DNA of 60,670 nucleotides from Desulfuromonadales bacterium (lineage in GTDB: Bacteria; Desulfobacterota; Desulfuromonadia; Desulfuromonadales; UBA2197): assembly GCA_014859605.1 (NCBI GenBank), contig JACUTW010000005.1:1-60670 (forward strand). Reading direction: 5' to 3'. The first letter of the stretch is position 1; each line of letters opens with the position of its first letter. This document shows positions 42,085-57,094 of the stretch, in pieces. The translations under genes and the position numbers were made by a program. The notes below the pieces were generated by a model, which saw only the letters and a list, made by a program, of their open reading frames with translations, had not been told where the DNA came from and ran no database searches.

Positions 42085-43692
42085 ATGATTATTGCCCCGA
42101 AGAATAAAGCCCCCTTCGGCCTCTTTTCGCCGAGCGGCGATGAAAACGCTCCCCCCCTGGAACTGTTGCGGCAGATCACTCTGCCGCTCTTCGTGACGGA
42201 ACAGGGAGGGAAAACAGTCCTGCTGCCGGGAGCGACCGGGCATGAGAATCTTCTTCCCTTCACCGCCATGGTTACGCCTGCGCCCCTCTCTTCCCTCGGC
42301 GATGCCAACTTTTGCCGCGATCATCACCTCCTTTATCCCTATGTCGGCGGGTCGATGGCGAAGGGAATCAGTTCGGTGGCGATGGCCAAGGCTTTCGGTG
42401 AAGCTGGCATGCTCGGTTTTTTCGGCGCGGCCGGGTTGCCCCTGGCGACGGTCGAGGCAGCGATCAGCGAGCTTAAGGCCGCCGGGGATTTCCCCTTTGG
42501 CTGCAATCTCATCCACAGCCCGCACGAGCCGGAGTTAGAGAACGCCCTTGTCGATCTTTATCTGCGCCACGGGATCAAGTTGATCGAGGCTTCAGCTTTT
42601 CTTGCCCTGACTCTGCCGCTGGTGCGTTATCGTACCCACGGGATTCACCGGGATGCGGACGGTCGCATCATTACTCCCAACCGCATCATCGCCAAGATTT
42701 CCCGCGAAGAAGTGGCGGCCCGCTTCTTCGCGCCGCCACCAGAGAAATTTCTGCATCAACTCGTCGAGGCTGGCGAGCTGACAGCGCAGCAGGCGGAGTG
42801 GGCGACGCAGATCCCGATGGCGCAGGATGTCACGGCCGAGGCCGATTCCGGTGGACATACCGACAATCGTCCGGCTCTGTCTCTGCTGCCGACGATTCTC
42901 AGCCAGCGGGCGCAGTTCCAGGCGCAGTACAATTACGAGCAGACCCTGCGGGTCGGTCTTGGCGGCGGCATCGCTACCCCGGCTTCGGCAGCGGCGGCCC
43001 TGAGTCTGGGGGCGGCCTATCTCGTTACCGGCTCGGTCAATCAGGCCTGTAGCGAAGCCGGCACCTGCGACGAGGTTCGCCAGCTCCTTGCCGAAACCCG
43101 CCAGGCGGACATCACCATGGCGCCCTCCGGCGATATGTTCGAGATGGGAGTCAACGTCCAGGTCCTCAAGCGCGGCACGATGTTCTCGATGCGGGCGGCC
43201 AAACTTTATGAGCTTTATCGTGCTTATCCCAGTCTCGACGCCCTGCCGGCGGAAGAGCGTGCTAAACTGGAAAAGACGGTCTTTCGCGCTCCCCTCAGCG
43301 AGATCTGGGAAGCGACCCGCGCCTACTTTGCGCAACGCGATCCCCGCCAGGTCGAGCGGGCGTCCACTGATCCCAAACACCAACTCGCTCTGGTCTTTCG
43401 CTGGTATCTTGGCCAGTCCCCGGTCTGGGCGAGTTCCGGCGAATCGTCGCGCCGCATCGATTATCAGATCTGGTGCGGGCCGGCGATGGGGGCTTTCAAC
43501 GAGTGGAGCAAAGGCTCTTTTCTCGAAAATGTTGCGCGCCGGCAGGTTGTGCCGGTGGCTTTGAACATCCTCTTTGGCGCCGCGGTTCTACTGCGGGCCA
43601 ACCAATTGGCGCTGCAGGGGATTTATCTTTCTGCCGCGGATAAACTCTCCGAACCGTTGGAGATTGCACAGATCAAGGAGTACCTCCATTGA
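42085..43692 (+). CDS. pfaD: PfaD-family trans-acting enoyl reductase
   Basis: LG...F..DH.L.YPY.GGSMAKGISS, NLIHSP.EP.LE, EASAF, EADSGGHTDNRP, GGGIATP, DMFEMGV.VQVLKRGTMF, DYQIWCGPAMGAFN. Confidence 0.93.
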   Translation: MIIAPKNKAPFGLFSPSGDENAPPLELLRQITLPLFVTEQGGKTVLLPGATGHENLLPFTAMVTPAPLSSLGDANFCRDHHLLYPYVGGSMAKGISSVAMAKAFGEAGMLGFFGAAGLPLATVEAAISELKAAGDFPFGCNLIHSPHEPELENALVDLYLRHGIKLIEASAFLALTLPLVRYRTHGIHRDADGRIITPNRIIAKISREEVAARFFAPPPEKFLHQLVEAGELTAQQAEWATQIPMAQDVTAEADSGGHTDNRPALSLLPTILSQRAQFQAQYNYEQTLRVGLGGGIATPASAAAALSLGAAYLVTGSVNQACSEAGTCDEVRQLLAETRQADITMAPSGDMFEMGVNVQVLKRGTMFSMRAAKLYELYRAYPSLDALPAEERAKLEKTVFRAPLSEIWEATRAYFAQRDPRQVERASTDPKHQLALVFRWYLGQSPVWASSGESSRRIDYQIWCGPAMGAFNEWSKGSFLENVARRQVVPVALNILFGAAVLLRANQLALQGIYLSAADKLSEPLEIAQIKEYLH

Positions 43693-46600
43693 AAAAGAGT
43701 GTAGAGAAGACCGGGCAGGCGTCGGCAACGATGGCCCCTATCGCCATAGTCGGTATCGGCTGCATCTTTCCGCAAGCCGAAGATAAGGTCGCTTTCTGGA
43801 GTAATATCCGCTCCGGCCGGGATGCCATCAGCGAAGTGCCGGCCAGTCACTGGCGCGCTGAGGATTACTTCAATCCCGACCCGAAAGCTCCGGATCAGGT
43901 CTACGCCAAGATGGGTGGCTTCCTCCCCCCGGTCGATTTTCATCCGATGGAGTACGGCATCCTCCCCAATGCTCTGGAGGCGGTCGATACCGCCCAGCTC
44001 CTCGGTCTGGTTGCGGTTGAGCAGGCTCTGGTCGACGCCGGCTACAGCGCGGACAAGGAGTTTGATCGCGAAAAGGTCAGCGTCATCCTCGGCGTCACCG
44101 GCAGTCTTGAGCTCGTCATCCCTCTCGGCGCCCGGCTCGGTCATCCCCGCTGGCGGGCCGCCCTCAAAGAGGCCGGCGTTGCCGATGATATTGCCGCCGA
44201 TGCCATCTCCCGCATCAGTGATTCCTACGTCCCCTGGCAGGAGAACTCTTTCCCCGGCCTCCTCGGCAATGTCGTGGCTGGCCGCATCAGCAAACACTTC
44301 AACTTCGGCGGCACCAACTGTGTTGTCGATGCCGCCTGCGGCAGCTCCCTCTCTGCCCTCAATCTCGCTGCCCTCGAACTCAGCGCCGGCAAGGCCGACA
44401 TGGTCGTCACCGGCGGGGTCGATACCTTCAACGATATCTTCATGTACACCTGTTTCAGCAAGACGCCGGCCCTCTCTCCCACCGGCCATGCCCGGCCTTT
44501 CGATGCCAATGGCGACGGCACCACCCTTGGCGAAGGTCTCGGGGTTGTCGTCCTCAAGCGCCTTGTTGACGCCGAACGCGATAATGACCGCATCTATGCC
44601 GTTATTCGCGGCATCGGCACTTCCAGTGACGGGCGCGGTTCGGCGATCTACGAGCCGAGTGCCGCCGGGCAGGAGAAAGCGCTGCGCCGCGCTTACCAGC
44701 AGGGAGATGTCACCCCGGAGACGATCGAACTGATCGAAGCGCACGGCACCGGCACCAAGGTCGGTGATGCCGTCGAGGTCAAGGCGTTGCGCCAGGTCTT
44801 CGGTGCAGCCGAGCGTCCCTGGTGCTCTCTCGGCTCGGTTAAGTCGCAGATCGGTCACACCAAGGCTGCCGCCGGTTCAGCCGGGCTGATCAAGGCAACC
44901 CTCGCCCTGTATCACAAGATTCTGCCGCCTACCCTCAAGGTGCAGAAGCCCCAGGATGTTGTCGTCGGCAAGGACAGCCCTTTCTACCTTGACACCGTGG
45001 CGCGTCCCTGGATCGCCAATCCGGATCACCCGCGTCGTGCCGGGGTCAGCGCCCTCGGCTTTGGCGGCAGCAACTACCATTGTCTCCTTGAAGAGTATCA
45101 GGCGGAGAAAGTCGTCGTCGACGAAAGCGGCGAAGTGCAGATTGCCGCCTTCAGCGCTGTTGACGGCGCGGGCCTGGAAAGCCGCCTGCGCGCCTTTCCG
45201 GCCGAAGCCGCCTGGGCGGAGCTCCGGCTTGCCGCGCATGCGAGCCGGCAGCAATTCGATCCGCAACAGGCCTGCCGTCTGGCGCTGGTGATGGAGAAAG
45301 GGAAGAGCAATCCTCCGGCGCAGATCAAGAGCGCTCTGAGCATGCTGGCGAAGGCGGGGACGCAGAGCTCCTGGCAGACCCCGGACGGCGTTTACTTCGC
45401 GACCGGCGGCGCTAGCGACAAGCTCGCAATCCTCTTTCCCGGCCAGGGGGCGCAATACCCCGGCATGCTCGCCGGACTGGCCCTGCAATTCCCCGATTTT
45501 TTTGCCACGATCCAGGCCGCCGATCAGGTGTTTGCTGCTGCGGTCGGCACCAGCGGTCGCCTCGCTGAAGCGATCTATCCGCGTGGCAGTTTTGACGATG
45601 CCAGCCGCTCGGCCGAGGTGACCCGGCTGCAGGCGACAGAAGTCGCCCAGCCCGCCCTCGGCGCTGTCAGCCTCGGCGCTCTCAAGGTCCTGAATGCCTT
45701 TGGCCTGCAGGCCGATGCCTTTGCCGGCCACAGTTATGGCGAACTGACCGCCCTTTGTGCCGGTGGTTACTTCGCTGAAGAGGCTTTGCATCGCCTTTCC
45801 CGCCGCCGCGGCGAACTCATGGCCGCCGGCGAGGGCGATCGCGGCACGATGCTCGCCGTCTCCGCTCCCCTCGCGGACGTCGAAAAGCTGTTGACCGACG
45901 AAGGTCTCGATCTCGTTCTCGCCAACCGCAATACCCCGGAGCAGGGGGTTCTTTCCGGAGCAACAACGGAGATTGCCAAGGCGGTCAAACTCCTCGAAGT
46001 CCGCGGTCTGCGCTACAAAGAGCTGACCGTCGCCGCCGCTTTTCACAGCCCCCTCGTTGCTGCTGCCAGCGCTCCTTTTGCCGCGGCGTTGGCGAGCACC
46101 GAGTTTCAAGTCGGCCAGGCCGCGGTCTTTGCCAACAGCAGCGGTCAGGCTTACCCGGCGAGCGCCGAGGGCGCCCGGCAGCTCCTCGCCACCCAGCTCG
46201 CCAGTCCGGTCGAGTTTGTCAGCGAGGTCGAGAGTCTTTATGCCAGCGGGATCCGCACCTTTGTTGAGGTCGGCCCTGGCGCCCGCCTGACCGGCATGGT
46301 CAAGGCGATTCTCGCTGGGCGTGAGCATCAGGCTTTGGCCCTCGATTCCTCCGGCGGGCAGCGTTCGGCAATTCACGATTTCGCCCGTACTCTCTGCCAG
46401 TTAGCAGTTCTCGGTTACGGGATTGACCTCAGTCGCTGGGATGGCGATTATGCGCAGGAGCGGAGCCGGGTGGCGAAGAAGAAGGGGATGGTCGTCCCCT
46501 TGTGCGGCGCCAACTACTTTAATCCGCCGGAGAAACGGCCGGCGCGGGTACCGCAACCCCTGCCAGCCGCTCCGGCTGCAGTTACCGCGGCACCGGCAGC

Positions 46601-49600
46601 CGTCACCCCGGTCGCGCCGACCCCGGCTGCCGCCCCGGCAGCTCTGCAGGATGCCCTGCGCCTCACGCAGCAGAGTATGCAGGCCTTGCAGTCGTTGCAG
46701 GAGCAGACTTCCCGCCTGCATCAGCAGTTCTTGAGTGGTCAGGAGGCGGCGACCCGCTCTTTTCTGACCTTGATCGAACAGCAGCGGCAGATGTTTTATG
46801 GCGGAGTAGTTGCTCCGGTTGCCAGTGTTGCAGCTCCGGTCTTGGCTCCAGTCGATGGGAAGCATGAGAATTCTGGGAGTTATAATTCCCATAGTTCCCA
46901 TGACTCCCATGCTCTTCCCGTTTTGACGCCACCGGTCACTAGCACCTCCTCAACAGATCGAATTAACGCCGTCCTCCTCGGTATCGTCGCCGAGAAGACC
47001 GGTTATCCCCTGGAGATGCTCGAACTCGACATGGCGCTCGATGCCGACCTCGGCATCGATTCGATCAAGCGGGTCGAGATTCTCTCCGCCCTGCATGAAC
47101 AACTTCCGGAAGCCCCGGCGATCCGCCCCGAGCACCTCGGTACCTTGCAGACCCTTGGGCAAATTGTCGATCATCTGCTTGCTGGTCTGGTTCAGTCTCC
47201 GGTGTTGGCTGCAGTTGATGGGAAACATGAGAATAATGGGAATTATAATTCCCAGAGTTCCCCTGATTCCCAGGTTGCGACTGTTCTCCTCGCCGTCATC
47301 GCCGAGAAGACCGGCTATCCTTTGGAGATGCTTGAACTCGACATGGCGCTTGACGCCGATCTTGGGATCGATTCGATCAAACGCGTCGAGATCTTTGCGG
47401 CGTTGCAGAGCGAACTGCCGAACGCGCCGGCGGTGCGTCCCGAGCAGCTTGGCACCTTGCAGACCCTCGGCCAGATCGTCAATTATCTGGTCGCGCCCAC
47501 CACCACTCCGGCCCCGACGCAGCTCGCGGTCAAGAGTGAGCAGATCGACCGGGCGACCGTGGCGCAAACCCTTCTGGCGGTCATCGCCGACAAGACCGGT
47601 TATCCTCTGGAGATGCTCGAACTCGATATGGCCCTTGATGCCGATCTGGGCATCGATTCGATCAAGCGGGTGGAGATCCTCTCGGCTCTGCAGGAGCGCC
47701 TGCCGGCCGCCCCGGCGATCCGTCCCGAGCACCTCGGCACCTTGCAGACCGTCGGCCAGATCGTCGACTTTCTCGCCAGCGTGGCCGGTGCCCCGGCGGC
47801 GCCAGTCGCACCAGCACCGGCAATCGCCGCGGAAGTGAGCGGGGAAGGGGTATCGCGCCAGGTCCTCAAGGCGGTGCCGCTCCCGGCCAGCACTAAACGT
47901 GAGGCGCTGCCTTTGCCGTCCGCAGCAGTGGTCGGTATCACTGATGACGGCTCCGAGCTCACCGCTGCCATTGCTCACGAATTGACTCTCCTCGGTTATA
48001 CGCCACTCGTTCTCGCCATCGAACAGTCGTTGCCGCCTCAGCTCGGCGGGCTGATCATCCTGACTCCGGTTGCCGGAGCCAGCGACCTCTTTTTGCGCCA
48101 GGCCTTCGAGTTGGTGCAGGCCTCCGCTGGAACAGCCACGGTCCTCCTCACCGTTTCGCGCCTCAACGGCTACTTCGGGCTGTTGCCGGGGGAAAATTTG
48201 CACGATCCCCTCTCCGGCGGTCTCGCCGGTCTCTGCAAGACGGCCGGGCACGAATGGCCGCAGGTCAGTTGCAAGGCCCTCGATCTCGCGGCTGACCTTC
48301 CGGTTGCAAGCGCCGCCAAGGGAATCGTTAGTGAACTTCTCCTGGTCGGACCGGGCGAAGTCGGAATCTCCGTCCAGGGGCTGCACAGCCTGAAGCTCTC
48401 CACGGCCCCCCTTGCTGAAAGTGGCGCCCTGCCACCGTTGCAAAAAGGCGATCTCGTCGTCATCAGCGGCGGGGCGCGCGGGGTGACCGCCGAGGTAGCG
48501 ATCGATCTTGCCGTCGCCACCCAGGCAACCCTTCTCCTTCTCGGCCGCAGTCCGGTACCGCAGCCAGAACCTGTCTGGTTGCAGGGGCTGAACAGCGAGG
48601 CCGAGATCAAAAGGGCTCTGCTCAGTCATGCCGAAACGCCCCTCAAGCCGAAAGAGGTGGAGGAACGCTATCAGAGCCTCCTCGGTCAGCGTGAAATCAG
48701 CAAGAATCTGCAACGGATGCGGACCGCCGGGAGTGAGGTTCACTACCGCTCTCTCGATCTGCGCGACCGTGGAGCTGTTGTCTCCGCTATCGATGATCTC
48801 CGTCGGAGTCACGGCCCGGTCAAAGGGCTGATTCACGGCGCCGGCGTCCTCGCTGATCGCCTGATCAAGGACAAGACCATCGAGCAGTTTAGCGCCGTTT
48901 ACAGCACCAAGGTTGACGGCTTACGCTCGCTCCTGGCTGCCGTCGCGCCGGACGAGCTGAAGTTCATCGCCCTCTTCTCCTCCTCGACCGGTCGCTTCGG
49001 CCGCACCGGTCAGGTCGATTATGCCGTTGCCAACGAAGTGCTGAACAAGATGGCGCAGCAGGAAGCGCGTTTGCGTCCCGCCTGCCGGGCCGTTTCGCTC
49101 AACTGGGGCCCCTGGGATGGCGGCATGGTTACCCCGGCCCTGAAGAAGCTCTTTGCACAAGAAGGGGTCGAGGTCATCGCGCTGCGCGCCGGCAGTCGCT
49201 ATCTCCTCCAGGAGCTGGCCACGCCGCCGGGAGGGGCCACCGAGATCGTCATCCTTGGTGCCCACGCCGCCGGACAGGTGGAAGAGGTAGAAGCGCCGCG
49301 CGAGAATATCTACGTCTCCAAGGCCTTCGATCTTGATCTTTCCATCGAACAGTTCCCTTTCCTCAAGTCGCATGTCATCGACAAAAAGGCGGTATTGCCC
49401 CTGGCGATGATCGTCGAATGGCTGGGGCACGGTGCCATCCATAACAATCCCGGTCTGCGTTTTCACGGTTTCAATGACCTGCGTGTTCTCAAGGGGGTCA
49501 TTCTGGAGCCGGGGCAGCTCCATAACCTCCAGGTTATGACCGGCAAGGCCTTCAAGAGCGGCGGCTTTCATGTCGTCCCGGTCGAACTCTCCGGCAGCTC

Positions 49601-50183
49601 GGCGAGCGACCAGCACTTCATCCATGCCCGCGCCAAGATCGTCCTCGCCAACCGTCTCCCGGAAGGGAAGCCGGCGATCGAGCGCCAGGAGCTCCCCCTG
49701 TATCCACATCCGCTGGCAGAGATTTACCGGCCGGAGCGCCTTTTCCACGGGGTCGATTTCCACGGCATCCGCGAGGTGATCGGCTGTGCCGCCGAAGGGA
49801 TTGCCGCCCTGTCGCGTCCCGCGCCGTTGCCCGGCGCCTGGATCGCTCAGCCGCTGCGCAACAGTTGGCTGGCTGATCCCTTGGTCCTCGATGCCAGTTT
49901 TCAGATGATGATCCTTTGGAGCTTCGAGCGTTATCAGGCCGCTTCCCTGCCGGTCTTTGCCGGGCGCTACCGTCAGTACAGCGAGAAGTTTCCGGAGTGT
50001 GGCGCTGAGATTAGGATTCGCGTCAGTAAGCAGAATCCCCACAAAGCGACGGCGGAGATCGATTTTGTCCATCCCCTCTCCGGCGAGCTTTTGGCGCGGC
50101 TGGAAGATTATGAATGCGTCATCGATGCCTCCTTGAATGAAACTTTTCAGCGCAATACCCTGCAGGGGGCGACGAGCGCATGA
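43689..50183 (+). CDS. pfaA: PfaA-like iterative type I PKS: KS-MAT-ACPx3-KR-DH
   Basis: KS DAACGSS, EAHGTGT, IGHTK; AT GHSYGE and AFHS; three LGIDSIKRVEI ACP motifs; KR GGARGV and DYAVANE; PKS-type DH SHVI...VLP, LFHG, LDA.FQ. Start may be the ATG of MAPIAIVG. Confidence 0.92.
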   Translation: MKKSVEKTGQASATMAPIAIVGIGCIFPQAEDKVAFWSNIRSGRDAISEVPASHWRAEDYFNPDPKAPDQVYAKMGGFLPPVDFHPMEYGILPNALEAVDTAQLLGLVAVEQALVDAGYSADKEFDREKVSVILGVTGSLELVIPLGARLGHPRWRAALKEAGVADDIAADAISRISDSYVPWQENSFPGLLGNVVAGRISKHFNFGGTNCVVDAACGSSLSALNLAALELSAGKADMVVTGGVDTFNDIFMYTCFSKTPALSPTGHARPFDANGDGTTLGEGLGVVVLKRLVDAERDNDRIYAVIRGIGTSSDGRGSAIYEPSAAGQEKALRRAYQQGDVTPETIELIEAHGTGTKVGDAVEVKALRQVFGAAERPWCSLGSVKSQIGHTKAAAGSAGLIKATLALYHKILPPTLKVQKPQDVVVGKDSPFYLDTVARPWIANPDHPRRAGVSALGFGGSNYHCLLEEYQAEKVVVDESGEVQIAAFSAVDGAGLESRLRAFPAEAAWAELRLAAHASRQQFDPQQACRLALVMEKGKSNPPAQIKSALSMLAKAGTQSSWQTPDGVYFATGGASDKLAILFPGQGAQYPGMLAGLALQFPDFFATIQAADQVFAAAVGTSGRLAEAIYPRGSFDDASRSAEVTRLQATEVAQPALGAVSLGALKVLNAFGLQADAFAGHSYGELTALCAGGYFAEEALHRLSRRRGELMAAGEGDRGTMLAVSAPLADVEKLLTDEGLDLVLANRNTPEQGVLSGATTEIAKAVKLLEVRGLRYKELTVAAAFHSPLVAAASAPFAAALASTEFQVGQAAVFANSSGQAYPASAEGARQLLATQLASPVEFVSEVESLYASGIRTFVEVGPGARLTGMVKAILAGREHQALALDSSGGQRSAIHDFARTLCQLAVLGYGIDLSRWDGDYAQERSRVAKKKGMVVPLCGANYFNPPEKRPARVPQPLPAAPAAVTAAPAAVTPVAPTPAAAPAALQDALRLTQQSMQALQSLQEQTSRLHQQFLSGQEAATRSFLTLIEQQRQMFYGGVVAPVASVAAPVLAPVDGKHENSGSYNSHSSHDSHALPVLTPPVTSTSSTDRINAVLLGIVAEKTGYPLEMLELDMALDADLGIDSIKRVEILSALHEQLPEAPAIRPEHLGTLQTLGQIVDHLLAGLVQSPVLAAVDGKHENNGNYNSQSSPDSQVATVLLAVIAEKTGYPLEMLELDMALDADLGIDSIKRVEIFAALQSELPNAPAVRPEQLGTLQTLGQIVNYLVAPTTTPAPTQLAVKSEQIDRATVAQTLLAVIADKTGYPLEMLELDMALDADLGIDSIKRVEILSALQERLPAAPAIRPEHLGTLQTVGQIVDFLASVAGAPAAPVAPAPAIAAEVSGEGVSRQVLKAVPLPASTKREALPLPSAAVVGITDDGSELTAAIAHELTLLGYTPLVLAIEQSLPPQLGGLIILTPVAGASDLFLRQAFELVQASAGTATVLLTVSRLNGYFGLLPGENLHDPLSGGLAGLCKTAGHEWPQVSCKALDLAADLPVASAAKGIVSELLLVGPGEVGISVQGLHSLKLSTAPLAESGALPPLQKGDLVVISGGARGVTAEVAIDLAVATQATLLLLGRSPVPQPEPVWLQGLNSEAEIKRALLSHAETPLKPKEVEERYQSLLGQREISKNLQRMRTAGSEVHYRSLDLRDRGAVVSAIDDLRRSHGPVKGLIHGAGVLADRLIKDKTIEQFSAVYSTKVDGLRSLLAAVAPDELKFIALFSSSTGRFGRTGQVDYAVANEVLNKMAQQEARLRPACRAVSLNWGPWDGGMVTPALKKLFAQEGVEVIALRAGSRYLLQELATPPGGATEIVILGAHAAGQVEEVEAPRENIYVSKAFDLDLSIEQFPFLKSHVIDKKAVLPLAMIVEWLGHGAIHNNPGLRFHGFNDLRVLKGVILEPGQLHNLQVMTGKAFKSGGFHVVPVELSGSSASDQHFIHARAKIVLANRLPEGKPAIERQELPLYPHPLAEIYRPERLFHGVDFHGIREVIGCAAEGIAALSRPAPLPGAWIAQPLRNSWLADPLVLDASFQMMILWSFERYQAASLPVFAGRYRQYSEKFPECGAEIRIRVSKQNPHKATAEIDFVHPLSGELLARLEDYECVIDASLNETFQRNTLQGATSA
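46855..46919. repeat. Intragenic palindromic 9-bp-period element 1 (linker before ACP1)
   Basis: ATGGGAAGC ATGAGAATT CTGGGAGTT ATAATTCCC ATAGTTCCC ATGACTCCC ATGCTCTTCCC. Confidence 0.8.
47218..47271. repeat. Intragenic palindromic 9-bp-period element 2 (ACP1-ACP2 linker)
   Basis: ATGGGAAAC ATGAGAATA ATGGGAATT ATAATTCCC AGAGTTCCC CTGATTCCC; perfect centre GGGAATTATAATTCCC at 47238-47253. Confidence 0.8.
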
Positions 50184-53100
50184 AGCATGGCAAATCGGTG
50201 GCGATCGTCGGGGTCGGCGGTATCTTCCCGGCGGCGCCGACCCTGGAGAGTTTCTGGACCAACATTACCGGTAATGTCACAGCGGCGCGTACTCCGCCAA
50301 AGGGGCGCTGGCTCCTCGAAGCGGAGGAGGTCTATGCGCCGACGCGCGGCGCAGCGGATAAGGTCTATGCACAAAAGGGCTGCTTCGTCGAGACGGCGGG
50401 CAGCGAACTCTGTTTCGATGGTCTCGATCTGCCCCCGGATTTTCTGGAGCGTTTCGATCCCCTCTTTCACCTCCTGCTGCACAGCGGACGTCAAGCTTTT
50501 CACGACGGGGTGACGACCAATCTCCAGCGCGAGCGGGTTGGAGTCATCATCGGCAATCTGGCGCTGCCGAGTGAACTCTCTTCTGCCCTGTCCCGCGACA
50601 CCCTCGGTCGCACCTTCGCCGAGCAGCTCCTCGGCGCCGAGGTTGCGCTTGAGAATCCGGAGATCGATCCGCTCAATCGTTATGTCGCCGGTTTACCGGC
50701 TGGTCTTCTCGCCCGCGCTCTTGGCCTTGGCGGCAGCTCCTACACCCTCGATGCTGCCTGCGCCTCCTCCCTTTACGCCATCAAACTGGCGGTCGACGAG
50801 CTTCTGTCCCACCGCGCCGATGCGATGTTGACCGGCGGCCTTTCCCGTCCTGATCCTCTCTACACGCAGATGGGTTTCTCCCAGCTGCACGCTCTCTCCC
50901 CGACGGGCTGCTGCTCCCCTTTTGACGCCAAAGGGGATGGTCTGGTGGTCGGCGAAGGGTGCGGCATCTTCCTCCTCAAACGGACCGAGGATGCACAGCG
51001 CGACGGCGATCATATCTACGCCGTGATCCGTGGCATCGGTCTTTCCAATGATCTCGGCGGCAGCCTCCTTGCTCCGGCTTCGGAAGGGCAGTTGCGCGCC
51101 ATGCGGGCGGCCTACGCGCAGGCGGGCTGGGCGCCGGAGGATGTCGATCTCATCGAATGTCACGCCACCGGCACTCCGGTCGGCGATGCCGTCGAGTTTG
51201 CCTCGCTGCAGGAGCTCTGGGGGGCCAGCGGCTGGCGTCGCGGCCAGTGTGTCCTCGGCTCGGTCAAGGCGAATATCGGCCATCTTCTCACTGCCGCCGG
51301 TTCTGCCGCCCTGCTTAAAACCCTCTTTGCCTTCAAGACAACGACCTTGCCGCCGACCGCCAACTTTGTCACCCCGGCCAAAGGGATCAATCTGGCGGAG
51401 AGTCCCTTTAAGCTCCTCAATACCGCCACTCCCTGGCCGGCGCGGGGCAAGGATGTGCCGCGCCGGGCGGCGATCAGCGCCTTCGGTTTCGGCGGCATCA
51501 ATGCCCATCTCCTTGTCGAGGAGTGGCTCCCCTCCCGTCCGGCCAAGAAGGGGACGGTCGCTTTTCATCCGGCTTTTCATAAACAGAATCAGCCGATTGC
51601 CATTGTCGGCATGGGGGCGCATTTCGGTCCCTGGGATTCTTTGGCCACCTTTGCGCCGCGGGTCCTCGGCAGTCGTCAACCGGTCGAAGCGACGCCGCCG
51701 GCGGTGTGGTGGGGGGCGGAGAGTAGTCAGTGGTTCGAAAAGGCCGGTCTCGGCAAGGTCGATTTTCGTGGTTACTTCCTCCCCGAAGTGGCTGCCGTCC
51801 CCGGCGAATTCCGCATCCCCCCGAAAGAGCAGGAGGAGATGCTCCCCCGCCAGTTGCTGATGCTGCAGGTCGCAGGGGCGGCATTACAGGATGCCGGGCT
51901 GCAGAATGAAGAGCTCCACTTCACCGGCGTCTTTATCGGCACCGGTTTCGATCTCAATGCCACCAACTTCAGCGTCCGCTGGTCGATGCAGCGCCAGGCG
52001 CAGCTCTGGGCGGAGCAGCTCGACCTGCAATTGACCGCGGCGGAGATGAACGACTGGGTGGCGGAGCTGCGCACGGCGGTCGGACCGCCTTTGACCGCCA
52101 ACCGGACGATGGGCGCCCTCGGCAGTATTGTCGCCAGTCGCGTCGCCAAAGAGTATCGCATCGGCGGCCCGAGCTTCACCATCTCCAGCGAAGAGAACTC
52201 CGGGCTACGTGCCCTTGAAGTCGGGATTCGCGCCCTGCAGGAGGGGCAGATCAACCGCGCCCTGGTCGGCGCTGTCGATCTTGCCGGCGATCTGCGCGCC
52301 GTCCTTGGGCAGCATGGCAGTCGTCCCTATTCAGCCACCGGGATGAGCCGTCCCTTTGACAAGGAGGCGGACGGCACGATCATCGGCGAAGGCGCGGCAG
52401 CGGTTGTCCTTAAACGTCTCGATGACGCCCAGCAGGATGGCGACCGTATCTATGCCGTCATTCGCGGCGTCGGTTCGGCCATTGGCGGGCCGGCGACACA
52501 GACGGCCCCGGATGCAAAGACCTACAATCTTGCTTTAGAGCGGACCTTTGCCGGCGTCGATTTTCAGCCGGGAAGTATCTCTTATCTGGAGACACACGGC
52601 AGTGGCTGTCCGGCTGAGGACGAGGTCGAGGTCAATGCTCTCGGCGCCTTCTTTGCCGCTTCTGCCAATGAAAATCCCTGTTATGTCGGCAGCGTCAAGA
52701 GCGACATCGGCGATGCCGGCGCCGCTGCAGGACTGGCCTCCCTGGTCAAGGCGACCCTGGCCCTGCACCGGCAGATTATCCCGCCGCTGCGCAACGTCCG
52801 GAATCCCCGTTACGAATGGATTCGCGCCCGGCGCGAGTTCATTCTCCCGCAGGCAGCCCAGTTCTGGCTGCGCAATCGCGCCGAAGGGCCGCGTCGCGCT
52901 CTGGTCAGCTCTCTCGCCGTTGACGGCAGTGCCGCCCATGTCCTCCTCGAAGGTTATGACGAGAAGCAGCGCGCGACGTTGCCGCTGGCGCTGCGTCAAC
53001 CCCTTGGCCCTCGCGCCGAAGGCCTTTTTTCTCTGGAAGGGGAGACACCGGCGGAATTGTCATCGCAGCTCCTGCGCCTGCGTGCCTTTGCTGCACCGGC

Positions 53101-56100
53101 GGATGAGGTCGGAATCGAAACTTTGGCGGCGCGCTGGTGGCGCCAGCATCCGCCGGCACCGGGTAAAAAATTAGCGGTCGCCATGGTCGCTGCGAGCATT
53201 TCCGAGTTGGAGGAAGCGATCAGCTCGGCGCTCCGCTCCCTTGAGGAGAATTCGGAGCAGTCCTTTGCCCAGAACGGCGGGCTGCGCGACCGCCTCTTCT
53301 ATAGTCCGCAACCGTTAGCGCCGGCCGGCAAGATCGCCTTTGTCTTCCCCGGTTCAGGGAACCACTTTGCCGGCATGGGGCAGGAGATTTCGGCGCAGTG
53401 GCCGGAGATCTTCCGCCGCCAGGATGAAGGGAGCCAGTTCCTGTCCCGCCAGTACCTGCCGCAAGCCTTCTGGCGCCCCGAGCTTGCACCGGCCCTGCAC
53501 CACGACCATAACGCTCTGGTCATCGGCCAGGTGGCGGTGGGGACGGCCTGCAGCGATCTGATTCGCTCCTTTGCCATCGAACCGCACGCCGTCAGTGGCT
53601 ACAGCCTCGGCGAATCTGCCGGGCTCTTCTCCCTCGGCGCCTGGAAAGATCGCGACGGCATGGCGCGGCGCCTCAAGGAATCGCCCCTCTTTACCGACGA
53701 GTTGGCAGGACGCTGCACCGCCGCCCGCCAGGTCTGGGGCTTGCCCCCGCAGGAAAGTGTCGACTGGGTGCTCGGCCTGGTCGCTGCCCCGGCAGCGGTC
53801 GTCAGCAAGGCCTTGGCCAACTACCCGCGCGTCTATCTCCTGATTATCAACACCTATGAGGAGTGTGTGATCGGCGGCGACCGCCGGCAGCTCGAAGAGC
53901 TGGTCACCACCCTCGGCTGCCACTTCTTTCCCCTGCAGGGAGTAACGACCGTGCACTGCGAAGTTGCTCAGCCGGTGGCGGAGCCTTATCGCCAGCTGCA
54001 CCTCTTCCCGACCACGCCGCCGGCAGGAATCGATTTTTACAGCAGCGCTTATGGGCAGCGTTACCCGTTGAGCGAAGAGGCGGTGGCCGATTCGATCCTG
54101 GCCCAGGCGCTGCGGACGGTCGACTATACCAAGGTGATCGAAGAGGCGTACCGCGACGGCGTCCGGATCTTTCTGGAGATGGGGCCGGGGAACTCCTGCA
54201 GCCGGATGATCGGGCGCATCCTCACGGGGCGGCCGCATCTTGCCCGGGCGGTCTGTTATCCCGGTCAGGATCCGACCTCGCTGATCCTGCGCTGCCTGGC
54301 CCAGGCGATCAGCGAGCGGGTGCCGGTGAATCTGGCGGCGCTTTATGCGGATGTCGAGGTCGCGGCAGCGCCGGAAAGGGCCAAAGGCAAAATCATGACG
54401 ACGATCGGCGGCAGTGCTTTTGCCCCGAAGTTGCCGGCGAAGAAAATGATTCCCATGACTCCCATACTTCCTATTCCTCCCATGGGAGCTATGGGAAGCA
54501 TGGGAAGTATGGGAAGTATGGGAAGTATGGGAAGTATGAAGACCGTCCCCGATCCGCTTGTTGCCGATTTGCAACAGATGCTGACTCTGCAGGCCGAGAG
54601 TCATGCCGCTTACCTCCGTTTCAGTGAGGCGATGACCGCCTCGCTCAGCGCCAACATTGCATTGCAGACCACTTTGTTGCAGCAGTTGGGTGACAACGCG
54701 ACGTTGACTGTTCCGCCGGCCGTTAAGCCGGCTTTCGATCGCGCCCTTTGTCTCGAATTTGCCGTCGGCTCCATTGCCAAAATGCTCGGGCCGGAGTTTG
54801 CCGCCATCGATAGCCATCCGACCCGGGTCCGCCTCCCCGACGAGCCGCTGATGCTCGTCGATCGGATCATGGCCGTCGAAGGGGTGGCGCGCTCGATGAC
54901 GCACGGTCGCGTCATCACCGAGCACGATGTCACCGCGGATCGCTGGTATCTTGATGGCGGCCGCATCCCCACCTGTGTTGCGGTCGAGGCCGGACAGGCC
55001 GATCTTTTCCTCTCCGCCTACCTCGGTATTGACTTCATCACCAAGGGGCGCGCGGTCTACCGCCTCCTTGATGCGGTGGTCACCTTCCATCGGCCGCTGC
55101 CGGTGCCGGGGGATGTCATCCGTTACGATATCCGCATCGATGAATTCTTCCGTCAGGATCAGACCTATCTCTTCCGTTTCAGTTTCGAGGGGACGGTCAA
55201 TGGCGAGCCGCTGCTGTCGATGCAGAAGGGTTGTGCCGGTTTCTTCACTGCCGAAGCGCTGGCGGCCGGGCAGGGGATCGTCCACACTCGTCTCGATCTG
55301 CAACCAAAACCCGGGATTCGCCCAGCGGACTGGCAGGATCTCGTGCCGCTGGCGATCGAGGCCTACAGCGACAGCCAGGTGCAGGCTTTGTACAATGGCG
55401 ATCTCGTTGGCTGTTTCGGCCCCGCCTTCGCTTCCCTTGGCTTGCAGCGTCCCTACACCCTCCCCGGCGGCAAACTCAAACTCGTCGACCGCGTTATCGA
55501 GCTCAATCCAACCGGGGGCCGTTACGGCCTCGGGCAGATCCGTGCCGAGATGGATATCGATCCGCAGGCCTGGTTTTTGACCTGCCACTTTGTCGATGAT
55601 CGGGTCATGCCCGGCACCTTAATGTACGAATGCTGCATGCATACCCTGCGTATCTATCTGCTGCGCATGGGCTGGGTCGGTGAAGAGGGGCAGACCTGGT
55701 GCGAGCCAATCCCCGGCGTTGACAGCGGCCTCAAGTGCCGGGGTCAGGTGACGGAGAGGACCAAGACCGTCACTTATCAGGTGAGTATCAAGGAGCTTGG
55801 CTACCGTCCCGAACCGTATGCGATCGTCGATGCCTTGATGTTCGCCGACGGCAAAGCGATTGTCGAGATTCCCAACATGTCGGTGCGTCTCGCCGGCCTC
55901 GACCAGAAGTTTCTTGCGGGGCTGTGGCATGATTCCCATGATTCATATGGGAGTCAGAGGAATTATGGGAATCATGGGAATCATGGGAAATCGGATGATT
56001 CGCTTGTCACCAAACCGGTTCTCTACGACTACGAGCGCATCCTCGCTTTTGCCATCGGCAAACCCTCCGAGGCCTTTGGCGCGCCTTATGAAATTTTTGA

Positions 56101-57094
56101 TCACGAGCGCAAGATCGCCCGTCTCCCTGGTCCGCCTTTCCAGTTTATCGACCGGATTACCGCCGTCAGCGGCGAAGCGTGGAAGTTGGTGGCGGGAGCG
56201 ACAGTGGAAGCGGAGTACGACGTTCCCGTGGATGCCTGGTACTTCCGCGAGTCGCGTCAGCCGCAGATGCCTTTCTCGGTCCTGCTGGAGATCGGCCTGC
56301 AGCCCTGCGGTTGGCTCGCTGCCTATCTCGGTTCAGCGCTGACCAGTCCCATCGACCTCTCCTTCCGTAATCTCGATGGCAAGGCCGTGCAGCACCGGGC
56401 GGTGACACCGCAAAGCGGGACGCTGACAGTGAATGTCAAGATCACCCGTATCTCCAGCAGCGGCGGCATGATCATCCAGGGCTACGACTTTGTTGTCAGC
56501 GACAGGGAAGGGCCGGTCTACAGTGGCGACACCGTCTTCGGCTTCTTCTCCAAGGAATCCCTGGCCCAGCAGGTCGGAGTGCGCGATGCCAAACTGTATG
56601 CGCCGACCCCGGCGGAACTCAGCCACGCCCGCTCCTTTTCTTATCCGCCAGCCGCGCCGTTCCCGGCAGAAATGCTGCGCATGGTCGATAGCATCGACCT
56701 CTTTATCCCGGATGGCGGCCCGGCCGGTCTCGGCTTTATCCGCGGCAGCAAGAAGGTCGATCCGCAGGAATGGTTCTTCAAGGCGCACTTCTTTGAGGAT
56801 CCGGTCTGTCCCGGCTCCCTCGGCCTCGAATCGTTTTTGCAGCTCCTCAAGATCGTGGCGGTCGAGCGCTGGGGCGGCGATGACACCAGTATCTTTGAAA
56901 CCGTCGCTCTCGGTGAAGAGCAGCGCTGGAATTATCGCGGCCAGATTATTCCGGCGAATGAGCTGGTGCAGATCGAGGCGGTTATCATTGCCGTCGACGA
57001 TGCCGGGCATCTCCTCAAGGCGAACGGTTTCCTTTCTGTCGATGGTCGCACCATCTATCAGCTGCACGACTTCTCCCTGCGGATGCATTTGTAA
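50180..57094 (+). CDS. Fused PfaB/PfaC-like PKS: KS-CLF-AT-(pseudo-DH/FabA-DH)x2
   Basis: KS DAACASS, ECHATGT, IGHLL; second KS lacks the catalytic Cys (ISSEENS); AT GYSLGE; FabA-like motifs WFLTCHFVDDRVMPGTLMYE and WFFKAHFFEDPVCPGSLGLE; ATGA overlap with pfaA. Confidence 0.92.
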   Translation: MKHGKSVAIVGVGGIFPAAPTLESFWTNITGNVTAARTPPKGRWLLEAEEVYAPTRGAADKVYAQKGCFVETAGSELCFDGLDLPPDFLERFDPLFHLLLHSGRQAFHDGVTTNLQRERVGVIIGNLALPSELSSALSRDTLGRTFAEQLLGAEVALENPEIDPLNRYVAGLPAGLLARALGLGGSSYTLDAACASSLYAIKLAVDELLSHRADAMLTGGLSRPDPLYTQMGFSQLHALSPTGCCSPFDAKGDGLVVGEGCGIFLLKRTEDAQRDGDHIYAVIRGIGLSNDLGGSLLAPASEGQLRAMRAAYAQAGWAPEDVDLIECHATGTPVGDAVEFASLQELWGASGWRRGQCVLGSVKANIGHLLTAAGSAALLKTLFAFKTTTLPPTANFVTPAKGINLAESPFKLLNTATPWPARGKDVPRRAAISAFGFGGINAHLLVEEWLPSRPAKKGTVAFHPAFHKQNQPIAIVGMGAHFGPWDSLATFAPRVLGSRQPVEATPPAVWWGAESSQWFEKAGLGKVDFRGYFLPEVAAVPGEFRIPPKEQEEMLPRQLLMLQVAGAALQDAGLQNEELHFTGVFIGTGFDLNATNFSVRWSMQRQAQLWAEQLDLQLTAAEMNDWVAELRTAVGPPLTANRTMGALGSIVASRVAKEYRIGGPSFTISSEENSGLRALEVGIRALQEGQINRALVGAVDLAGDLRAVLGQHGSRPYSATGMSRPFDKEADGTIIGEGAAAVVLKRLDDAQQDGDRIYAVIRGVGSAIGGPATQTAPDAKTYNLALERTFAGVDFQPGSISYLETHGSGCPAEDEVEVNALGAFFAASANENPCYVGSVKSDIGDAGAAAGLASLVKATLALHRQIIPPLRNVRNPRYEWIRARREFILPQAAQFWLRNRAEGPRRALVSSLAVDGSAAHVLLEGYDEKQRATLPLALRQPLGPRAEGLFSLEGETPAELSSQLLRLRAFAAPADEVGIETLAARWWRQHPPAPGKKLAVAMVAASISELEEAISSALRSLEENSEQSFAQNGGLRDRLFYSPQPLAPAGKIAFVFPGSGNHFAGMGQEISAQWPEIFRRQDEGSQFLSRQYLPQAFWRPELAPALHHDHNALVIGQVAVGTACSDLIRSFAIEPHAVSGYSLGESAGLFSLGAWKDRDGMARRLKESPLFTDELAGRCTAARQVWGLPPQESVDWVLGLVAAPAAVVSKALANYPRVYLLIINTYEECVIGGDRRQLEELVTTLGCHFFPLQGVTTVHCEVAQPVAEPYRQLHLFPTTPPAGIDFYSSAYGQRYPLSEEAVADSILAQALRTVDYTKVIEEAYRDGVRIFLEMGPGNSCSRMIGRILTGRPHLARAVCYPGQDPTSLILRCLAQAISERVPVNLAALYADVEVAAAPERAKGKIMTTIGGSAFAPKLPAKKMIPMTPILPIPPMGAMGSMGSMGSMGSMGSMKTVPDPLVADLQQMLTLQAESHAAYLRFSEAMTASLSANIALQTTLLQQLGDNATLTVPPAVKPAFDRALCLEFAVGSIAKMLGPEFAAIDSHPTRVRLPDEPLMLVDRIMAVEGVARSMTHGRVITEHDVTADRWYLDGGRIPTCVAVEAGQADLFLSAYLGIDFITKGRAVYRLLDAVVTFHRPLPVPGDVIRYDIRIDEFFRQDQTYLFRFSFEGTVNGEPLLSMQKGCAGFFTAEALAAGQGIVHTRLDLQPKPGIRPADWQDLVPLAIEAYSDSQVQALYNGDLVGCFGPAFASLGLQRPYTLPGGKLKLVDRVIELNPTGGRYGLGQIRAEMDIDPQAWFLTCHFVDDRVMPGTLMYECCMHTLRIYLLRMGWVGEEGQTWCEPIPGVDSGLKCRGQVTERTKTVTYQVSIKELGYRPEPYAIVDALMFADGKAIVEIPNMSVRLAGLDQKFLAGLWHDSHDSYGSQRNYGNHGNHGKSDDSLVTKPVLYDYERILAFAIGKPSEAFGAPYEIFDHERKIARLPGPPFQFIDRITAVSGEAWKLVAGATVEAEYDVPVDAWYFRESRQPQMPFSVLLEIGLQPCGWLAAYLGSALTSPIDLSFRNLDGKAVQHRAVTPQSGTLTVNVKITRISSSGGMIIQGYDFVVSDREGPVYSGDTVFGFFSKESLAQQVGVRDAKLYAPTPAELSHARSFSYPPAAPFPAEMLRMVDSIDLFIPDGGPAGLGFIRGSKKVDPQEWFFKAHFFEDPVCPGSLGLESFLQLLKIVAVERWGGDDTSIFETVALGEEQRWNYRGQIIPANELVQIEAVIIAVDDAGHLLKANGFLSVDGRTIYQLHDFSLRMHL
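54446..54538. repeat. Intragenic palindromic 9-bp-period element 3 (AT-DH linker)
   Basis: ATGATTCCC ATGACTCCC ATACTTCCT ATTCCTCCC ATGGGAGCT ATGGGAAGC (ATGGGAAGT)x4; centre CTCCCATGGGAG at 54477-54488; encodes MIPMTP...MGSMGS. Confidence 0.85.
55928..55991. repeat. Intragenic palindromic 9-bp-period element 4 (DH-DH linker)
   Basis: C ATGATTCCC ATGATTCAT ATGGGAGTC AGAGGAATT ATGGGAATC ATGGGAATC ATGGGAAAT; encodes HDSHDSYGSQRNYGNHGNHGK. Confidence 0.8.

Follow-up and report, generated by a model that had tools for sequence, protein, structure and literature searches.

In-frame palindromic nonamer repeats in PUFA-type synthase genes of a Desulfuromonadales bacterium and their likeness to the arms of a four-helix-bundle gene

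The stretch analysed here, hereafter the window, comprises the 60,670 nucleotides of contig JACUTW010000005.1 from a Desulfuromonadales bacterium of the UBA2197 lineage (assembly GCA_014859605.1). It carries a pfaA-like polyunsaturated fatty acid (PUFA)/secondary-lipid synthase gene and a pfaBC-like gene, whose interdomain linkers contain four islands built from 9-nucleotide units and their reverse complements. These islands belong to a repeat family whose arms also bracket a small four-helix-bundle (4HB) gene in the same genome and accompany related genes in several phyla; they are present in some orthologues and absent from others, and the peptide they encode is not under detectable constraint. 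We consider it probable that the four islands are gene-less hairpin copies of this 4HB-cassette repeat family, which would have been inserted at different times, tolerated as part of the linker peptides and altered since then through drift and slippage.

Four islands and their copies in the genome

Throughout, a run of ATGGGANNN units is termed a G-arm and its complement, NNNTCCCAT, a C-arm. The genome under study (G000; 2.76 Mb, 153 contigs) is one of four genomes of a single genus (G000–G003), and two further genomes named below, G005 and G031, belong to other families. The host genes and the elements within them are as follows.

43689..50183, plus strand: pfaA-like PUFA/secondary-lipid synthase gene, KS-AT-3xACP-KR-DH, hosting sites 1 and 2 (open reading frame, translation, Pfam)
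46855..46919, plus strand: site 1, AT-ACP1 linker hairpin with the G-arm first, PfaA residues 1056-1077 (sequence, alignment, fold)
47218..47273, plus strand: site 2, ACP1-ACP2 linker hairpin with the G-arm first, PfaA residues 1177-1195 (sequence, alignment, fold)
50180..57094, plus strand: pfaBC-like gene, KS-CLF-AT-FabA-type DH domains, hosting sites 3 and 4 (open reading frame, translation, Pfam)
54446..54541, plus strand: site 3, AT-DH linker palindrome with the C-arm first, PfaBC residues 1423-1453 (sequence, alignment, fold)
54482..54538, plus strand: near-perfect tandem ATGGGAAGT run within site 3, 6.3 copies (Tandem Repeats Finder)
55928..55991, plus strand: site 4, DH-DH linker palindrome with the C-arm first, PfaBC residues 1917-1938 (sequence, alignment, fold)

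An initial annotation made from the letters of the window had described four islands of ATGGGA-type units and their complements, and all four are found where it placed them, together with the perfect centres that it quoted and the arm order, G-arm first in pfaA (sites 1 and 2) and C-arm first in pfaBC (sites 3 and 4). Its assignment of the islands to the AT-ACP, ACP-ACP, AT-DH and DH-DH linkers likewise agrees with Pfam domains and orthologue alignments, on which the placement of all four sites rests. The pfaA-like product contains KS, AT, three PP-binding, KR and PS-DH domains, and the pfaBC-like product two KS-type domains, AT and four FabA-type stretches.

The elements are 54–96 bp long, with G+C fractions of 0.46, 0.41, 0.47 and 0.41 at sites 1 to 4, against 0.628 for pfaA and 0.624 for pfaBC. 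Their arms have a period of 9, the tract at site 3 showing 91% matches over its 6.3 copies. Three 9-spaced ATGGGA cores with at most two mismatches occur 12 times in the window compared with 0.01 expected, and none of 100 shuffles reached 12. Folded as RNA, sites 1 to 4 give energies of -28.4, -22.9, -49.1 and -29.7 kcal/mol, corresponding to z values of -4.81, -3.30, -6.61 and -5.10. The assembled number of ATGGGAAGT units at site 3 is without independent confirmation, Logan k-mer contigs of the probable source run ending and restarting inside the tract (54490-54538). A search of Rfam 15 returned no match above gathering score, the sub-threshold microRNA-precursor look-alikes being confined to site 3, where they score 36.2 bits and the gathering score is 100.

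The statement that the islands are read in different frames proved true of site 3, which alone has the register ATG-GGA-NNN / NNT-CCC-ATN, and incorrect for sites 1, 2 and 4, which share the register NAT-GGG-ANN / TCC-CAT-NNN. Two of the three plus-strand frames are free of stops at each site.

Across the whole genome, the two-unit pattern gave 10 matches, all within the two pfa genes, and the control gave none. Three units with at most two mismatches identified nine arms, of which six lie in the pfa genes, two on contig C3 and one on contig C46; with at most three mismatches, 13 arms were found against five for the control word. An arm on contig C71, a Gly/Met-rich coding run, was set aside as unrelated. 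The copy on C46 is a G-arm within the disordered interdomain linker of MutL, and this arm also occurs in the congeners G002 and G003. Contig C3 carries a 4HB gene that matches TIGR04258 (2.8e-24; 'four helix bundle suffix domain'), TIGR02436 and PF05635 (23S rRNA intervening-sequence protein); a full hairpin of G-arm, loop and C-arm (z -5.1) immediately precedes this gene, and a further G-arm stands just 3' of its stop. The resulting layout is C-arm, gene, G-arm, with which the C–G order of sites 3 and 4 agrees, and the G-arm of site 4 matches that of the C3 hairpin at 30 of 34 positions with variant units in the same order.

The C3 gene lies in a decayed type I restriction-modification operon (C3:16081-17904; locus L009 7085-8911). 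An N-terminal HsdM remnant is fused in frame via the hairpin to the 4HB gene in a single open frame of 469 codons; downstream, a 12-codon hsdS start is interrupted by the G-arm and followed by a C-terminal HsdR (EcoEI_R_C) fragment. A run of ATGGGANNN-family units also occurs inside the C3 4HB coding sequence (C3:17261-17293), in the loop before the suffix domain, where other 4HB subfamilies have different short-period runs. The 4HB gene is the sole gene found bracketed by arms in G000, and no parent insertion sequence with the same ends was found. The expectation of a transposase or nuclease gene flanked by the same repeat was thus borne out in part: a flanked gene exists, and it encodes a 4HB protein. 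G000 has two matches to Y1_Tnp, and neither of the two contigs with these Y1-transposase-like genes carries an arm; the search did not extend to other transposase families.

A second 4HB gene of the same genome provides a control with a different unit length. This gene (C131:84-600; PF05635, 1.8e-38) has arms of the heptamer GTGACGN on both sides, and hairpins or runs of GTGACGN without a gene occur on C51, C71, C131:1318, C144, C148 and C151. Two G000 contigs end in GTGACGN runs. Six of the seven heptamer loci tested are not spanned by any open frame, whereas all eight nonamer loci tested lie inside one, a contrast that supports the view that this family owes its place in coding DNA to its 9-nucleotide unit. 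The initial annotation had proposed a miniature palindromic element, selfish or structural, which its 9-bp period enables to survive in coding linkers, in concept like the Rickettsia palindromic elements, and had called for a search for further genomic copies and a comparison of intergenic with intragenic ones. This proposal is supported by the copies on C3 and in the MutL linker, by the nonamer–heptamer contrast and by the presence/absence patterns described below.

Presence, absence and drift among orthologues

Site 1 was aligned across the four congeners and eight genomes from seven other genera; it is present in all four congeners and missing from all eight of the others. Two of the four congeners, G000 and G002, carry site 2, which shares 87% identity with site 1 across 61 nt, upstream flank included. 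It is best read as a probable intragenic duplication or conversion of site 1 among near-identical ACP modules and does not represent an independent insertion. The number of ACPs varies among congeners, G003 having one extra ACP between ACP1 and ACP2 (locus L013 compared with window positions 47100-47600).

Site 3 occurs in all four congeners with a variable number of units and is not found in genomes of other genera that cover the position in the alignment. Its ATGGGAAGT run is longest in G000, where it is likely to reflect slippage expansion. Site 4 occurs in G000 only; G001 and G003 carry other sequence and G002 is masked there. Metagenome contigs of relatives from three other runs skip both sites 3 and 4. 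The 'empty' site 4 of G003 (locus L070) has a perfect 20-nt palindrome of its own, and that of G001 a 14-nt one. In G016 (L072) and G021 (L078), which represent other genera, the DH-DH linker of pfaBC contains a palindrome of a different type, repeated and GGGGACAGTCCCC-like, which resembles a palindromic family listed for G. bemidjiensis.

The peptide encoded at site 1 is not conserved, since codon changes per congener pair are mostly nonsynonymous (5-9 nonsynonymous versus 0-1 synonymous) and the variable columns are not concentrated at third codon positions (4/20 at the third position, 5/20 and 7/20 at the other two). In the adjoining ACP1 codons, the same pairs show 4-8 nonsynonymous versus 20-26 synonymous changes. 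The assertion in the initial annotation that conservation is not at the protein level is upheld by these counts and by the presence/absence pattern in orthologues. The congeners differ in how strongly the hairpins fold (z -1.6 to -6.0): some retain the strength, whereas in others it has been lost (-1.6 to -2.6). Sliding 60-nt folds of 14 pfaBC orthologues revealed no consistent hairpin peak at the linkers: a top-5 window fell near site 3 in approximately 5 of 14 (approximately 3 expected) and near site 4 in 1 of 14. The pattern across congeners looks like drift of a tolerated insertion, not like a selected structure.

Arms at 4HB genes across genomes

The two-unit pattern was detected in 15 of 41 related genomes, with 37 matches against two for the control, and three exact cores in 18 of the 233 genomes of the order, where the control gave none. 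Among the 21 order-wide three-core loci examined, a 4HB gene lies within 1.5 kb in 7, and 14 have none. Two of the 21, the three-unit matches at L090 and L104, belong to ordinary His-rich proteins, and most of the rest are, by inspection, C–G palindromes between genes or at gene ends. Two-unit matches L031-L037 in relatives, in ordinary-looking coding sequence, were left out of the tally of elements. Of the 41 related genomes, 18 encode TIGR04258, and arms occur at 8 of their 30 TIGR04258 loci, amounting to 14 arms in 90 kb, compared with nine arms in the 2.76 Mb of G000, two of them at its own 4HB locus.

The TIGR04258 family has thousands of relatives, all 8000 scored candidates having E <= 1e-10. 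From named genomes, 80 4HB loci were fetched and the conserved motif was located in 58, the other 22 being excluded from arm counts. ATGGGA-type arms stand at the 5' end of the gene in 22 of the 58, just after the stop in 12 and inside in 2, with nine further arms in 138 kb of flanks. These loci span Desulfuromonadales, Nitrospirota, Armatimonadota, Planctomycetota and Acidobacteriota. By eye, the N-terminal tail of all 23 relatives fetched consists of a translated G-arm (Gly/Asn/His) and then a C-arm (Ser/His/Asp) before the conserved core, a pattern that a nucleic-acid hairpin accounts for and a need for the peptide does not. Two individual loci show further arrangements: in an Armatimonadetes metagenome-assembled genome (MAG), an ATGGGA-type hairpin lies in frame within hsdM, directly upstream of the TIGR04258 gene (L143:618-691), and in a Schlesneria MAG, three tandem repeats of ~140 nt lie 3' of the 4HB gene, two with a full G–C hairpin and the third with a G-arm only (L167:2020-2450).

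Fourteen hairpins at 4HB 5' ends gave a median z of -1.2, with values below -3 in three, weak scores that arise because the 121-nt segments include flanks. When partners were swapped among 50 arm pairs, the own partner was favoured overall (median 0.26; below 0.1 in 15 of 50). This preference resides mainly in hairpins outside the open reading frame (ORF), which are near-exact, locus-specific palindromes, and not in the 5' coding ones.

Sequence comparison indicates that the TIGR04258 4HB gene travels horizontally, often within type I restriction-modification operons. The G000 copy is 92.8% identical to that of G031 over 726 nt, whereas PfaA segments are just 56% identical in protein. In 1643 locus pairs, nucleotide homology is restricted to the ORF core, with a median start 112 nt before the conserved motif and a median end 39 nt before the stop. 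Of 54 4HB loci, 14 have HsdM as the upstream neighbour, 2 another restriction-modification piece and 18 an unrelated gene; at the other 20 the neighbour matched no family.

Origin of the elements and comparison with known systems

According to the account that we favour, the home of the 9-nt family would be both ends of the small TIGR04258 'suffix' 4HB gene, from which arms may have entered the pfa genes, at sites 1 and 3 before the genus diversified and at site 4 in the G000 lineage only. Site 2 would have arisen by intragenic duplication or conversion of site 1 along with the ACP linker, and all copies would later have been modified by point mutation and by slippage gain or loss of whole units, the cell translating the elements as linker peptide. 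A possible route is recombination between the palindromes at the cassette ends, which could delete the gene and leave a hairpin; arm-to-arm recombination is conceivable because palindromes at two ends of a cassette are also direct repeats. The elements would persist because their unit equals three codons, two of three coding-strand frames are stop-free and interdomain linkers tolerate low-complexity peptides. We infer that the direction ran from cassette arm to solo hairpin.

Several observations weigh against this account. No pfa gene with a full cassette was found, the copy number of the 9-nt family is low (four loci in G000), and G001-G003 have no TIGR04258 match despite carrying sites 1 and 3. 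The insertion mechanism is putative: neither site 1, compared with G004, nor site 4, compared with G001/G003, showed a target-site duplication, and around site 4 approximately 120 nt of linker, beyond the element itself, are replaced relative to G001 and G003. The 5' coding hairpins of 4HB ORFs are generic, pairing with their own arm no better than with arms of other loci. Finally, G005, from a different family, has a G–C hairpin whose position in the AT-ACP linker of PfaA almost coincides with that of site 1, which could mean old inheritance with selection instead of repeated insertion; in its PfaBC AT-DH region, a C-arm lies ~60 residues from site 3.

A broader proposition, which we put forward tentatively and regard as doubtful, is that 4HB 'suffix' genes and their cognate short-period hairpin arms constitute a transposase-less selfish cassette, an mRNA-borne counterpart of rRNA intervening sequences. 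The 4HB protein would putatively act on its own hairpins as REP-associated tyrosine transposases (RAYTs) act on repetitive extragenic palindromes (REPs), and shed arms whose unit is a multiple of three would colonise ORFs, giving rise to new interdomain linkers in megasynthases and repair proteins.

Among competing explanations, the hairpin could be an independent, non-autonomous element similar to REPs or to MITEs (transposable elements of the miniature inverted-repeat type), moved in trans, with the 4HB gene a favoured target and not the source. Solo palindromes lacking a nearby 4HB gene at two-thirds of the order-wide loci examined (14/21), the solo copies of G001-G003 and the two Y1-transposase-like proteins encoded in G000 are all consistent with such an origin. 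We nevertheless judge it unlikely: the contigs with the Y1-transposase-like genes carry no arm, neither site 1 nor site 4 shows a target-site duplication, copy numbers are far under those of typical REP or MITE families, and the hairpin-encoded N-terminal tail looks general to the 4HB subfamily across phyla, for which repeated chance landing is a hard explanation.

The initial annotation had offered, as an alternative, that the hairpins are retained for a useful RNA or DNA structure, pausing ribosomes between domains for co-translational folding or protecting a long mRNA. All four islands are indeed strong hairpins positioned exactly between domains, the DH-DH linker of G016, G021 and G003 holds other palindromes, and the G005 element occupies the same PfaA linker. 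Even so, this suggestion found no support in the comparative data and has a slim chance of being correct, as site 1 is missing in 8/8 other aligned genomes, sites 3 and 4 are missing in the other genera covered, z falls to -1.6 to -2.6 in some congeners, the sliding folds of 14 orthologues lack a consistent linker hairpin, and the same elements occur in MutL and in a dead restriction-modification operon.

Slimmer still is the prospect that each element grew in place within its linker, a chance seed being extended through replication slippage and template switching, with a convergent resemblance of the elements to one another and to the 4HB arms. Slippage does act here, as the tandem run of site 3 differs in length among congeners, but unrelated genes and other phyla share the 6-nt core, the 9-nt period and even the arrangement of variant units, and the chance expectation per window is a hundredth of one match. 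Selection on the peptide itself (His/Ser/Gly-rich or Met/Gly/Pro-rich linkers serving, for example, flexibility or metal binding), with the DNA symmetry as a by-product, is very improbable: sites 1, 2 and 4, the MutL copy and the 4HB tails do share a register that yields His/Asn/Gly and Ser/His/Asp runs, yet the site 3 peptide is unrelated, site 1 shows the nonsynonymous excess given above with no concentration of variable columns at third codon positions, and it would remain unexplained why a G-type run is followed by its reverse complement.

With respect to known systems, REP/REPIN elements are organized around a single RAYT gene flanked by hairpins that are also dispersed as solo copies. 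The arrangement described here is similar in that a single gene is flanked by hairpins that recur solo in the genome; it differs in that the flanked gene encodes a 4HB protein instead of a Y1 transposase, the copies are few in number and lie inside genes, and the Y1-like genes have no arms nearby. Two attributes of MITEs, a target-site duplication and a parent insertion sequence with the same ends, are both lacking, and flanking linker is replaced at site 4. ORF-bearing intervening sequences (IVSs) lie in rRNA and are excised at the RNA level. Those of 23S rRNA in Coxiella and Leptospira (S23p / PF05635) resemble the cassette in that pairable sequences surround a gene whose product is of the same protein family, whereas the cassette described here resides in mRNA operons and the window holds gene-less arms only, which are translated. 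The Coxiella 23S rRNA IVS is termed a selfish element in the available portion of PMC4990558.

Rickettsia palindromic elements (RPEs) are described, in the accessible text of PMC10969869, as in-frame palindromic inserts in unrelated protein genes that are translated as extra peptide; they measure ~150 bp and fall into ten families, the peptide that they encode is conserved, and a Rickettsia genome holds dozens of them. As with RPEs, the repeats reported here are in frame in unrelated genes (PfaA, PfaBC and MutL; HsdM at L143). They differ in being 54–96 bp long, modular in 9 nt, present at few (four) loci and without a conserved peptide, and in sharing units with arms around a specific small gene.

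Closer to the host, multicopy sequences inside genes without frameshift have been reported for Geobacter metallireducens and G. bemidjiensis (Aklujkar et al. 2009, 2010; PMC2996986, PMC2700814, as far as the available portions of these papers extend). One palindromic copy is placed within a polyketide synthase lipoprotein gene (PMC2996986 Table S6), and genes of G. metallireducens contain a family marked by four repeats of the heptanucleotide GGACCGG (PMC2700814). These families resemble ours in having related bacteria as hosts and repeats inside genes; their consensus sequences, as far as they were compared, differ from that of the ATGGGA family, and the accessible parts of both papers mention no link to a 4HB gene. 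A search of 12 of the 15 supplementary files of PMC2996986, which did not take in the G. metallireducens supplements, gave no occurrence of the string 'ATGGGA'. Palindromic amphipathic repeat coding elements (PARCELs) are coding repeats with DNA dyad symmetry and apparent horizontal spread (available text of PMC2996958); as described there, they form a 25-residue amphipathic domain in tandem arrays of surface proteins, unlike the present elements, which have no conserved domain. A search that did not cover subscription journals brought up no paper that treats TIGR04258 or describes repeats beside PF05635 genes other than those in rRNA. In-frame palindromic repeats as such are already known; the 9-nt modularity and the tie to a 4HB gene cassette set the present family apart.

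Collectively, the islands provide a concrete case of selfish repeat DNA turned protein, in which a hairpin family adds 18-31 residues to each of four PUFA-type megasynthase linkers, and contributes to a MutL linker as well, and in which translated hairpins are tied to a small 4HB gene family with thousands of relatives. For annotation and for polyketide synthase engineering, such linker stretches are dispensable insertions and not functional motifs, and the repeat tracts are break points for short-read assemblies. The occurrence of 9-nt units inside ORFs and of 7-nt units between genes suggests a simple, testable rule for repeat survival. If transposase-less cassettes do shed arms into ORFs, they would constitute a so far unrecognised source of linker innovation.

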